A DNA stretch of 64,000 nt from a phage. Positions 47,301 to 50,300 of this stretch are shown piece by piece. The position numbers are program-made. The DNA is taken from the sequence record PZ674595.1; one strand, 5' to 3'. Position 1 is the stretch's first letter; every line of letters begins with the position of its first letter.

Positions 47301-50300
47301 GCAAAAATAGGTATATACTTACCTATCGAGAAAGAAGATGATTGCAGCCGAAAAAATCAAACAGCGAAAGCGCGACAACTCTCTTCGTGACCTCTGGAGA
47401 ACACCTGACTGGCTGTTTTCTGCCATTCAACGTTATCTTGGGGTGACATTTGATGTTGACGTTGCCTGCAACAAGGACAATGCAAAGCTGCCTAATTTCA
47501 TAGGCGTTGAGCGTGATGCTTTGAAATCTGAATGGGGACAGCCAGGTACAATTGCCTTCCTCAATCCCCCCTACTCCAAAATCTCCCCCTGGATTGATGC
47601 GGCTATACGTGAGCAGGCTCGCGGAGTTACAACAGTGATGCTAATTCCTCAATCCCTAGATACAAAGTGGTATGAGCGTGCAACAGAGTGTGCGAATGAG
47701 ACGATTATTCTGTCTGGTGGCCGCGTAGCGTTTGTCGAGCCTGACGTCAATCTGGGTCAGGTAGAAGTAAACATCAACCCAGGTGGCAGTATGCTCGTTG
47801 TTTTTCGAGGATTCTGTCAGGACGCTGGGCACTCTATAAGCAAGATCCCTTTGGACGTCATGAAAAGTCTGGGAGGGTATGATCCTGCGAATGTGATCAG
47901 GAAAAAAAGACCATCAAAGAAGGCTGCTTAGTTTGTTCTGGCGTCTGTAATTAGCCTGCTTCTGTATATATAAATAACTACATATTAATTATTAATATAC
48001 GGAAGCAGGCTGTTTTGTATCAGAGACTCCAGACCTGAACATCACTACAGAATCCACTAGAACCCCTTCCCAGACGCTTTAAAATCGATTTTATGAATCA
48101 CTTTAAGGAAACTAACATGTCATACCCGACTAATGTCGTTGCGCTCGTAGAGAGCGATTTTCTGGCCCAGGCCCGTGAAATGATGAAAGATCGCGAGCAG
48201 GCTTTCAACTTGTACGAATGGGCAATTAAGTGCTTGCATCTTGGGGAGCATCGCGAACTTGTTGAACAGCTTTTAGGTGAGTTGATCAACGAGGTGTTTG
48301 CCTTGAATGTTCAACTACATGGTCGAGAAAATAATCAATCGAAATGATAGATAAGTACAAACTATTCATAAAGTGAATTGTAAGTGCTAAGATCTGATAG
48401 TTTCCAGTCGTAGACTGGAGACTCGACCTGATGGGTGGGGGTAAGCGTCACTGGCGTCAGGTTTAAAAAAGCTCACTACCAGCGTAGAACCGGTGCCGTT
48501 TAGGTGTCGGGGAAGGGGGAACCAAAGTGAGCGGAGACAAGGGTCACTTTATGATTGTCGAGTCTGGGGTGTTTCGAGAGGTTGAATCCAGTACTCCCCT
48601 TCATAAAGTGTGGGAAGATCTCGGTTCTGGGGTGCTGTCATCCATAACTTCCCAAGTCTAAGCTGGCAGTAGACTTAGGCCATAACTTTTCAGGTTATGA
48701 AACGACCAGGTTGGTGAGGGATTTTTATACTCACCTCCCTGGGAGAGTATTACCTGAAAAGACAACCTCTCACTTCGTTCGAGGTGAACTTCACTCACTT
48801 CGTTCGTTCAGTTCAGGTTTATAAAAACCTGTTCTGGGAAGTAATTTGTTTATTTTAATAATTATTAACACGCACGCGTGTGCGCACGCGCGAGGAAAAA
48901 AAAATCGGCGCGGCGCTTGATTCAGGAGTTTATATGACGACGAAGACACCAGCCCGATCGCAAGAAAAAACTCGCAAAAAAGCCAAAAACAAAAATTCTC
49001 CCCGCACCAATTCCACAACGCCTGTCGTAGAGTTCAATCCCCAGCTTAAAACCGTGAAAATCTTCAGTGATGGCTCTTGCCTTAAAAATCCGGGTGGCCC
49101 GGGCGGTTACGGTATAGTTCTCCAGTATCGTGGTGAGGAACGCGAGTTCTCAGATGGTTTTCATAGCACCACCAATAACCGCATGGAGATGATGGGGGCA
49201 CTTATTGGGCTGGAGCGTTTGAAATATCCATGCAACGTTATTTTGCACTCTGATAGCCAGTATCTGAAAAACGGCATGACACAGTGGATGAAATGGTGGA
49301 AACGCAATGGATGGGTGACTTCTGACAAAAAACCGGTAAAGAATGTTGATCTGTGGAAGCGTCTGGATGAGGCTGCAAGTCGACATAATGTTCGCTGGAA
49401 GTGGGTTAAAGGTCACGCCGGGCATCGTGAAAATGAAATATGTGATCGACTCGCGAAGATCGCAGCTTTTTCCGCAGCAGATATGCCTCACAAGAAAGAT
49501 ATTGGTTTTGTTTACAACAAGAAGTAAGTAAGTGTTTACCTATCATTTTAAATCATGTATCTTATCAGCGTCAGGATGACAATGTGTCGGTAAGACACAG
49601 TTCCAGGATGGAACGAGAAAGGCGGCTGGCAATCGCCAGCCGCAACTCTTTCTGACACTGGATGGAGTCCACATGGCACGTCAAACCTATTTCACTTCTG
49701 CAACTAAACGTCCTCGTTCACTACGTCAAATTTTGGCCGAATTATTTAGCGGTCGTGTTCTGTCACGTCTTGATGAACTAGAGACTGCCGTTCGGTTGCT
49801 GAATGAACGTTTAGATAAGCAAGCGTCAGTTGTTGCGAACGTGGGGGCGATTGTTACCTCTGGTTCTTCACGCGAAGCGAAAAGTACACGGCCTTTAGTG
49901 AAGGAGAAAAACAACAAGGACAGTTCGAATGGAAAATTTTCAAAGAAAGAGGCTGAAACCAATGGCCTACGTTCTCATTATAGTTTCACTGGCGACGGTA
50001 GCCGTTCCAGCCGGCCAGAGCCTTTTGATGCCGGGTTCATCCATCACCACACCTCCGTCGACGACAATTACCACCACTCCAGTAGAGCGTCCTGTCACTC
50101 TGGATGGGATGACGGTGGATGCGATACCTCAAGTTCATCCAGTTACTCAGGATCATGCTGTGACTAAGGCGGTTGTATGAACTGGTTTTCAAATCACTTT
50201 GGAAAAACTTGGCTGGCGATTCTGGCTTTCATAGCTCTCATGGCCGCCGGTTGGGTATCGAACATTGTAAAACTCGTTTGCTCTGGTGATCTCCAGTTTC

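Follow-up and report, generated by a model that had tools for sequence, protein, structure and literature searches.

A ~445-nt structured non-coding RNA in the gap upstream of the RNase HI gene of SSU5-like phage-plasmids

Introduction

What is encoded in the 586-nt gap (48348-48933) that separates the gene p84 from the RNase HI gene rnhA in a 64,000-nt stretch of phage DNA (sequence record PZ674595.1; the whole stretch is referred to as the window)? A first-pass annotation had described this gap as a 540-bp highly structured non-coding region and had proposed a large non-coding RNA (ncRNA), an R-loop-dependent lytic origin processed by the adjacent RNase H, or another RNA-guided or RNA-templated function. 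The analyses reported here confirm its observation of a structured stretch without a plausible or conserved open reading frame (ORF), although the length is 586 nt and not 540, and partly support its interpretation. Namely, the gap encodes a ~445-nt structured ncRNA on the plus strand (~48399-48845), referred to as type 1; the large-ncRNA option is well supported by conservation, covariation and an abundant transcript in published RNA sequencing (RNA-seq) data, and the RNA matches no Rfam family.

At the sequence level, the window is an SSU5-like phage-plasmid of E. coli, because a 110.9-kb E. coli plasmid matches the region at 100% identity, the Escherichia phages PhiR41_1 and Cyrano at 97-99%, and Salmonella phage SSU5 at 87%. 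Phage-plasmids of the SSU5-like type are frequent among clinical Enterobacteriaceae and carry resistance genes. The RNA is also found in hundreds of Klebsiella, Enterobacter, and Salmonella plasmids, and the most conserved sequence of the region is annotated either as nothing or as a hypothetical 'moron' protein.

Results

The gap encodes a conserved RNA structure maintained by compensatory substitutions

The plus strand of the gap folds with a minimum free energy of -212.7 kcal/mol, compared to -167.5 ± 5.6 kcal/mol for dinucleotide shuffles (z = -8.0); the minus strand reaches z = -5.7. The three local hairpins that had been listed as examples are all present, namely CCAGTC-GTA-GACTGG (48405-48419), AGTCTA..TAGACT (48655-48675), and GGTGAG..CTCACC (48708-48730). 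Scanning 48348-48934 with the 4227 models of Rfam 15, among which are RNAI, 6S, tmRNA, RNase P, group I/II introns, ROOL, GOLLD, HEARO, and riboswitches, gave no match at gathering thresholds, and at E ≤ 10 only microRNA-type noise below 17 bits was returned inside the RNA. Likewise, neither Rfam nor the searchable literature, including that on ncRNAs of the SSU5 / pHCM2 phage-plasmids, yielded a description of this RNA.

Alignment of the window with SSU5, Enterobacter, Citrobacter, and Klebsiella homologues revealed a core of 313 nt (48534-48846) with 94-96.5% identity between lineages, in which hardly any nucleotide varies, even in the loops. Its conservation exceeds that of the flanking genes, which differ at approximately every third base and match at only 43-56% of third codon positions; for a neighbouring 269-aa protein, identity across the same lineages is just 54-60%. 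The segment 48422-48533 retains 79-94% identity, and conservation collapses on either side, to 46-62% in the promoter flank, 39-45% in the first hairpin, and 25-57% in an AT-rich spacer. These comparisons show that the core is under far stronger constraint than the neighbouring genes.

RNAalifold on 53 distinct copies yielded 128 consensus pairs, almost none of which is broken. More divergent copies were reached via p84 homologues and scored 362 bits (L179), 499 bits (L187), and only 50 bits (L177, E ~1e-15). In an alignment of 11 sequences including such divergent copies, 33 of the 128 consensus pairs carry double-sided changes, compared to 10.0 ± 2.2 in column shuffles (0/500) and 3-12 with slid partners, and 94.3% of the cells are standard pairs. 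Many pairs alternate between G-U, G-C, and A-U, with G-U pairs being meaningful for the plus strand only. When folded alone, L177 shows the helices in the same order (z = -4.1), and it scores 113 bits, with a fully compensated hairpin, against a covariance model built for the central domain. The structure is thus shown to be maintained by compensatory substitutions.

The strong nucleotide conservation, which extends to the 'loops', and the recurrent palindrome that adjoins the RNA could also reflect an element that acts at the DNA level only, such as a packaging site, a recombination site, or a protein-binding array, with transcription being incidental. We consider this very improbable: pairing is kept up by compensatory changes, also through G-U pairs, which count as pairs on the plus strand only, the plus and minus strands differ in folding, iterons or tandem repeats are absent from the region, and the transcript is abundant (see below).

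A small protein or a type I toxin encoded in the gap is barely credible. The longest ORF in the gap comprises 46 aa on the minus strand, and the longest plus-strand ORF 44 aa. The latter (48527-48661) is the sole ORF annotated anywhere in the gap, as CYRAN_81 in phage Cyrano, where it is listed as an expressed 'moron'. Because homologues carry frameshifting 1- and 2-nt indels within this ORF and have lost its ATG, it is not coding. In addition, it lacks a third-position variation pattern, its peptide is not hydrophobic, and the NCBI pipeline annotates nothing here in 232 E. coli genomes. We regard both the coding and the DNA-only explanations as essentially excluded.

Architecture of the RNA and its promoter

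A predicted sigma-70-type promoter (48365-48393, plus strand), consisting of a -35 box TTCATA (48365-48370), a 17-bp spacer, and a -10 box TAAGAT (48388-48393), places the predicted transcription start at ~48399-48401. While TTCATA-N17-TAAGAT scored below the threshold of a simple promoter scan, its architecture is kept in all lineages despite sequence divergence, as TTTAAA-N17-TAAAAT in SSU5 and as TTTACA-N17-TAGAAT in Klebsiella. The SSU5, Enterobacter, and Klebsiella types carry a perfect GGTAAGTACTTACC palindrome just 5' of this promoter, which is half degenerate in the E. coli type; the degenerate copy of the 14-bp palindrome GGTAAGT.ACTTACC in the window spans 48350-48362, and the intact form is also present in Citrobacter homologues.

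Palindromes resembling GGTAAGT.ACTTACC occur 23 times in the window, compared to 2.5 expected matches, and always in intergenic promoter regions (~14; positions 2383, 5736, 13729, 16387, 23799, 27319, 28945, 29272, 33074, 37756, 42469, 47308, 49525, and 54504). They overlap or abut the -35 box of sigma-70-like promoters, for example TAAGTAAGTGTTTACC-N17-TATCTT at 49525. A phage regulator of the early and middle transcription units probably uses the palindrome as its operator.

The type 1 RNA starts with a 5'-terminal hairpin, H1 (48403-48421), which is hypervariable in sequence and kept in structure. Its sequence differs in every sublineage, at least five different stem sequences occur, all of which pair, and double changes are seen at 5 of 7 pairs. 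The following 5' domain (48422-48533) is the more variable part of the RNA body and contains the helices 48425-48440/48446-48463 and 48471-48476/48527-32 as well as a G-rich segment, GGGGAAGGGGGAACC; compensatory pairs were found at alignment columns 30/66, 31/65, 35/61, and 79/137.

The ultra-conserved core (48534-48846) comprises the helices 48545-54/48601-10, 48611-17/48648-54, 48656-65/48670-80, 48686-99/48748-61, 48777-87/48795-805, and 48808-18/48827-37. Its most conserved module (48608-48656, GUGUGGGAAGAUCUCGGUUCUGGG..CCAUAACUUCCCAAG) has the layout UGGGAAG / 12-nt internal loop / covarying hairpin / CUUCCCA, in which the outer stem is invariant and the inner hairpin occurs as GGGUG/CAUCC, GGGUA/UACCC, or GGAGA/UCUCC. 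This module is nearly unchanged in L177, the copy with a match of only 50 bits to the family hidden Markov model. Alternative or tertiary pairings in the RNA are likely, because a number of segments could pair with different partners (three to four occurrences of CUCAC/GUGAG and two of UGGGAAG): GAGAGGUUG is able to pair with CAACCUCUC, either copy of the duplicated CUCACUUCGUUCG can pair with CGAGGUGA, and several further pairings exclude one another. The longest direct repeats in the RNA are two copies of 13-16 nt. The core is followed by the AT-rich spacer (48847-48868), which varies in length and sequence, with indels, and is a candidate site of 3'-end formation or processing.

The RNA is abundant in the lysogen

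Phage Cyrano (pLF82) is 97% identical to the window at the RNA locus, and its CYRAN_81 corresponds to 48527-48661. In RNA-seq of the LF82 lysogen, CYRAN_81, listed by the authors as a hypothetical-protein 'moron', was expressed 12-fold above the prophage median in lysogeny broth (LB; PMC9928086, Table 1, S1 Table). Across five conditions, its log2 fpkm (fragments per kilobase per million) ranged from 6.8 to 10.35, compared to 3.1-5.8 for the upstream gene and 2.6-5.0 for rnhA (PMC9928086). Based on these published LF82 values, CYRAN_81 exceeds both of its neighbours ~12-fold in LB and 10- to 45-fold across all conditions and reaches a level near that of the putative repressor; little rnhA transcript is present in the lysogen. 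These data show that the lysogen contains a discrete, abundant transcript whose level is not sustained into rnhA.

Retention of the RNA without an intact rnhA

The rnhA gene (48934-49527, plus strand, 197 aa) starts with the ATG at 48934, which is preceded by the Shine-Dalgarno sequence AGGAG (48924-48928). Residues 38-180 of its product align with residues 2-143 of RnhA (E ~1e-62; Pfam PF00075, 1.6e-44), and the protein is a genuine E. coli-type RNase HI. The basic N-terminal extension pointed out by the first-pass annotation is real, but measures ~37 aa rather than 45 and represents a variable, low-complexity tail with no recognisable domain (49-61% nucleotide identity, with indels). A hybrid-binding domain was not found, as the match to solved RNase H structures is confined to residues 38-180 and Pfam returned PF00075 alone.

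The position of the RNA on the same strand as rnhA, with no recognisable promoter or palindrome in between, raises the possibility of a cis-acting leader or attenuator, i.e., a 535-nt 5' untranslated region (UTR) whose alternative folds gate transcription or translation into RNase HI. Mutually exclusive pairings such as those of the two CUCACUUCGUUCG copies with CGAGGUGA would suit such a switch, and the 10- to 45-fold drop in reads before rnhA fits attenuation. However, the RNA is retained where rnhA is truncated (L184 and L187). Similarly, in a sister RNA family described below, L174 and L176 keep the RNA, termed type 2, with rnhA being replaced by an opposite-strand gene, and a third locus (type 3, L171) has an RNA but no rnhA at all. 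A function purely as rnhA leader is unlikely, since the RNA persists where rnhA has been lost. Moreover, the size and the near-total sequence constraint exceed those of known leaders, and the RNA itself accumulates as an abundant species. Taken together, we judge a leader function to be quite unlikely and conclude that the RNA is not dependent on rnhA.

Structured RNAs of unrelated sequence occupy the same locus in related phage-plasmids

The type 1 RNA occurs in 689 PLSDB plasmids; in each of the genera Escherichia, Enterobacter, Salmonella, Citrobacter, Cronobacter, and Shigella, it is counted as often as the neighbouring protein. It was found in 232 of 5426 complete E. coli genomes (4.3%), where the NCBI pipeline leaves the site without annotation, and in ~75 IMG/VR contigs. 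Exact 20-21-mers, searched in IMG/VR (three patterns) and in a single genome of each species, retrieved only close SSU5-like copies and one truncated Buttiauxella copy; among the species-representative genomes, the hits were limited to Kluyvera (two genomes) and this Buttiauxella copy. The latter, on a Buttiauxella gaviniae contig (L167, 4836-5164), retains only the 3' two-thirds of the RNA and the GC/A-run block that follows it (see below), in an unrelated context. In one further assembly (L186, 1501-2237), a deletion begins at the 3' end of p84 and covers most of the RNA. Other phages encoding RNase HI at 38-49% or 89% identity (L136, L138, and L146-L153) have no such RNA or gap, and a syntenic rnhA locus was not found in Acinetobacter and Aeromonas relatives.

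More distant phage-plasmids share the gene order exonuclease, Dam methyltransferase, p84 homologue (45-51%), gap, and rnhA (51%). In 30 Klebsiella plasmids, the gap harbours a different, strongly conserved RNA of ~465 nt (type 2; L170, 7105-7754), which folds with z = -6.7, shows 21 compensatory pairs compared to 5-6 in slid controls (a 55%-identical relative included), and ends in a canonical hairpin-U7 terminator just 5' of the rnhA ribosome-binding site. A third RNA (type 3; L171, 5883-6935), found in four Klebsiella plasmids without rnhA, has one domain in common with type 2. Neither k-mer sharing nor the central-domain covariance model revealed similarity of type 1 to types 2 and 3, and the sister loci gave no Rfam match. 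Because types 1, 2, and 3 are found at the same position, the p84-rnhA locus holds a structured RNA in all lineages, in discontinuous sequence types.

Iteron-like repeats lie 3' of the type 3 RNA (five copies of GTGAAAC, AAAGTCAAAACC repeats, and two repeats of ~100 nt), and the plasmids in question carry such repeats at a second site as well.

A GC/A-run block between RNA and rnhA resembles the ColE1 origin

Downstream of the AT-rich spacer lies a block (48869-48919, plus strand) that consists of a GC alternating palindrome, CGCGAGG, an A-run (A9, 48895-48903), and a GC-rich 3' arm. The purine-pyrimidine alternating palindrome reported previously was found as described (ACGCACGCGTGTGCGCACGCGCG, 48870-48892). 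The block is 70-87% identical among close lineages and present in every type 1 copy, including copies in which rnhA is truncated after few codons, and even L177 and L179 retain its core ..GCGCGCGAGG(C)A5-10. The block folds into two GC hairpins, neither of which occupies the Shine-Dalgarno sequence. The block may be the processed 5' end of the rnhA mRNA, with a stabilising hairpin and an A-rich enhancer, or the GC-rich discriminator of a weak promoter, or the hybrid-forming site of an origin.

The last of these options corresponds to the main rival explanation and to the RNase H-processed origin that had been proposed for the region. The transcript would act as a ColE1-like pre-primer that extends across the AT-rich spacer and stays hybridised to the DNA at CGCGAGG-A9; RNase HI of host or phage would cut the hybrid, and the resulting 3' end would prime DNA synthesis for lytic replication or a second replicon. 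If true, this would be a ColE1-type mechanism inside a phage. The ColE1/pMB1 origin sits at an A-run. RNA II of ColE1/pMB1 is ~550 nt long and ends at ...ACGCGCAGAAAAAAAGG, with ...ACGCGCAG-A7-GG at its end, and the block in the window resembles ...ACGCGCAGAAAAAAAGG.... Similarly, the promoter of the type 1 RNA lies ~500 nt 5' of a conserved A9 run preceded by ACGCGCGAGG, a motif that persists in L177 despite the divergence of most of the RNA in this copy. Further common features are a constitutive promoter, a structured untranslated RNA of ~500 nt, a downstream ACGCGC(G)AG(G)-A7-9 motif, and variable 5' hairpins, which recall the ColE1 specificity loops. The involvement of RNase H is likewise paralleled, here by gene adjacency only, since rnhA lies directly 3' of the RNA. 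The locus is located within a replication module (DnaE, DnaQ-like exonuclease, gp32-like SSB, UvsX-like protein, and FEN), the RNA contains G-runs, and the sharp drop in RNA-seq signal after the RNA fits cleavage at an origin.

On the other hand, the likeness to ColE1 is that of a short motif and not of homology, and an AT-rich spacer separates the RNA from the motif. No antisense partner corresponding to RNA I was detected: the RNA does not match Rfam RNAI (RF00106), and a conserved minus-strand promoter or terminator within the 5' domain is absent. GC skew shows no inflection at 48.8 kb, and the phage-plasmid has a separate Rep_3 replicon at 30.5-31.6 kb, 17 kb away. Moreover, expression of the RNA occurs in lysogeny, a state in which a firing lytic origin would do harm, the type 2 RNA has no such motif and terminates with a hairpin and U7, and most of the RNA is deleted in L186. 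In view of these observations, we regard a pre-primer function as unlikely, though less so than a leader function.

Discussion

Our analyses identify the p84-rnhA gap of SSU5-like phage-plasmids as the locus of a new RNA family within a known kind, the orphan large structured RNAs of mobile elements. With a probability of roughly 0.5, we favour an independently transcribed structured ncRNA that is a core element of these phage-plasmids and acts as a stable trans-acting RNA or RNA-protein particle. This reading is preferred over other functions because the RNA accumulates well above the flanking mRNAs and because its sister family is bounded by a terminator; action in trans rather than as an rnhA leader is suggested because the core is nearly fixed, including the loops, and the RNA survives the loss of rnhA.

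Such an RNA would be transcribed by host RNA polymerase from the TTCATA-N17-TAAGAT promoter, and its 5' hairpin would protect the transcript. Most transcripts would end or be cut in the AT-rich spacer, before the GC hairpins, so that a stable folded RNA and little rnhA mRNA would result; the GC hairpin and A-run would then serve as 5' leader of rnhA. The folded RNA, or an RNA-protein particle, would act in trans by contacting a conserved phage or host partner, and the hypervariable 5' hairpin together with the 5' domain may set type specificity.

Several points weigh against this trans-acting RNA. Its 5' and 3' ends are inferred positions, and no canonical terminator was found 3' of the type 1 RNA. 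The ncRNA model does not explain the CGCGAGG-A(n) element 3' of the RNA with certainty. The RNA-seq value covers 135 nt, and the strand-specificity of the data is unconfirmed. Furthermore, expression is documented for one lineage only, in which the promoter palindrome is degenerate, and lysogenic expression may not hold for the SSU5 and Klebsiella lineages. Recent spread of the module by recombination could account for part of the high identity; L004 is visibly mosaic. No trans target was found in the rest of the 64-kb window, where complementarity is at chance level (10-12-mers), and a model of the p84 protein yielded no informative fold match.

A more far-reaching and still tentative proposal is that the SSU5-supergroup phage-plasmids carry a new class of large, autonomously transcribed structured RNAs at one fixed locus, comprising at least three unalignable families with strong conservation inside each, and acting as type-specific RNAs or particles and not as leaders. 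For example, these RNAs could serve as immunity or incompatibility determinants, as host-manipulating RNAs, or as a ColE1-like second origin.

Compared to known systems, the type 1 RNA shares several properties with the ROOL, GOLLD, OLE, HEARO, and raiA class, such as a length of several hundred nucleotides and a multi-domain fold with covariation. As for ROOL/GOLLD-type RNAs, it is carried on mobile elements or prophages and was found as a conserved non-coding gap, with a function that is not obvious from the context. Unlike these, it matches none of the 4227 Rfam models, has a narrow host range (Enterobacteriaceae phage-plasmids) and very low divergence, and its locus is fixed, after p84 and before rnhA. 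The c4 RNA of P1 and the CI/CA RNAs of P4 and N15 are antisense or processed RNAs of 70-80 nt with defined complementary targets nearby, which are expressed from the prophage in lysogeny and occur as lineage-specific sequence types. The type 1 RNA compares with these RNAs in being a lysogeny-expressed ncRNA with lineage-specific types, but it is ~445 nt long and shows no above-chance target complementarity in 64 kb. The type III toxin-antitoxin system ToxIN is ordered as promoter, abundant RNA, drop in transcript level, and nuclease gene. The same order is seen here, but tandem repeat units are absent, and the downstream gene encodes an ordinary RNase HI that is dispensable for retention of the RNA.

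Other candidate systems were rejected. The antitoxin RNA of a type III toxin-antitoxin system would have tandem direct repeats, of which there are none, with only the two 13-16-nt copies being present; a type I system (hok/sok-like) is discounted by ORFs that are not hydrophobic and are broken by indels in homologues. A retron or DRT-type RNA was dismissed for want of a reverse transcriptase domain among the neighbouring genes, and a cis leader or riboswitch with obligate linkage to rnhA by retention of the RNA where rnhA is truncated, replaced, or absent. PADLOC returned no defence-system match. The RNA-guided or RNA-templated function suggested at first likewise found no support: neither a reverse transcriptase nor a guide-dependent nuclease is encoded nearby, and the RNA is kept where rnhA is truncated or replaced.

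Near-total constraint and expression in the lysogen make this ~445-nt RNA a strong candidate for a novel functional RNA, and a tractable one, with hosts such as LF82/Cyrano and SSU5 being cultivable. If it acts in trans, it would represent a new large RNA class for prophage-host biology.

Genetic setting and other features of the window

The genes around the RNA encode the Dam methyltransferase, p84, RNase HI, and proteins without assigned function. The p84 gene (48117-48347, plus strand), whose start was set at the second ATG (48117) from homologue starts, lies directly 5' of the RNA in all three RNA families and encodes a 76-aa protein of PHROG 5343 (function unassigned). Its AlphaFold model confidently shows three helices (predicted local distance difference test score, pLDDT, 79), with no fold match in the PDB and no hint of a Rop-like or other RNA-binding fold. 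Further upstream, 3' of the Dam methyltransferase gene, a long AT-rich perfect hairpin (gcctgcttc...gaagcaggc) and a T-rich stretch at 47934-48011 likely form a terminator; in Rfam this hairpin gave spurious microRNA matches only.

Downstream of rnhA, the 5' UTR of the gene at 49673 (49569-49643) contains two hairpins with an AGGA loop, cgtcAGGAtgac and gttccAGGAtggaac, and a weak CsrB-like Rfam match (16.8 bits), followed by a strong GC hairpin (49622-49643). These elements are conserved across lineages, the same arrangement is found in the type 3 locus, and the 5' UTR may be subject to CsrA-type translational control.

The Rep_3 plasmid initiator gene is located at 30505-31557. The phage replication and nucleotide-metabolism module of the window encodes DnaE, the DnaQ-like exonuclease, the gp32-like SSB, a UvsX/RecA-like protein, and FEN, together with ribonucleotide reductase, thymidylate synthase, and DHFR. 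The phage-plasmid also carries a cold-shock-protein gene and its RNA thermometer, as a full-length match to the cspA thermoregulator 5' UTR was found at 21679-22097 on the minus strand (Rfam RF01766, 185.7 bits). An ORF at 60031-62190 (plus strand) has the full domain architecture of a methionyl-tRNA synthetase (PF09334 at 5e-166, and a tRNA-binding domain), and four tRNA genes (Asn, Tyr, Thr, and Ser) lie at 9476-10128; the most abundant Cyrano transcript in the LF82 RNA-seq is an ORF annotated over this tRNA cluster. Finally, a DDE transposase gene of insertion-sequence type (PF13701) at 6001-7260 is inserted in the phage-plasmid backbone in a low-GC segment.

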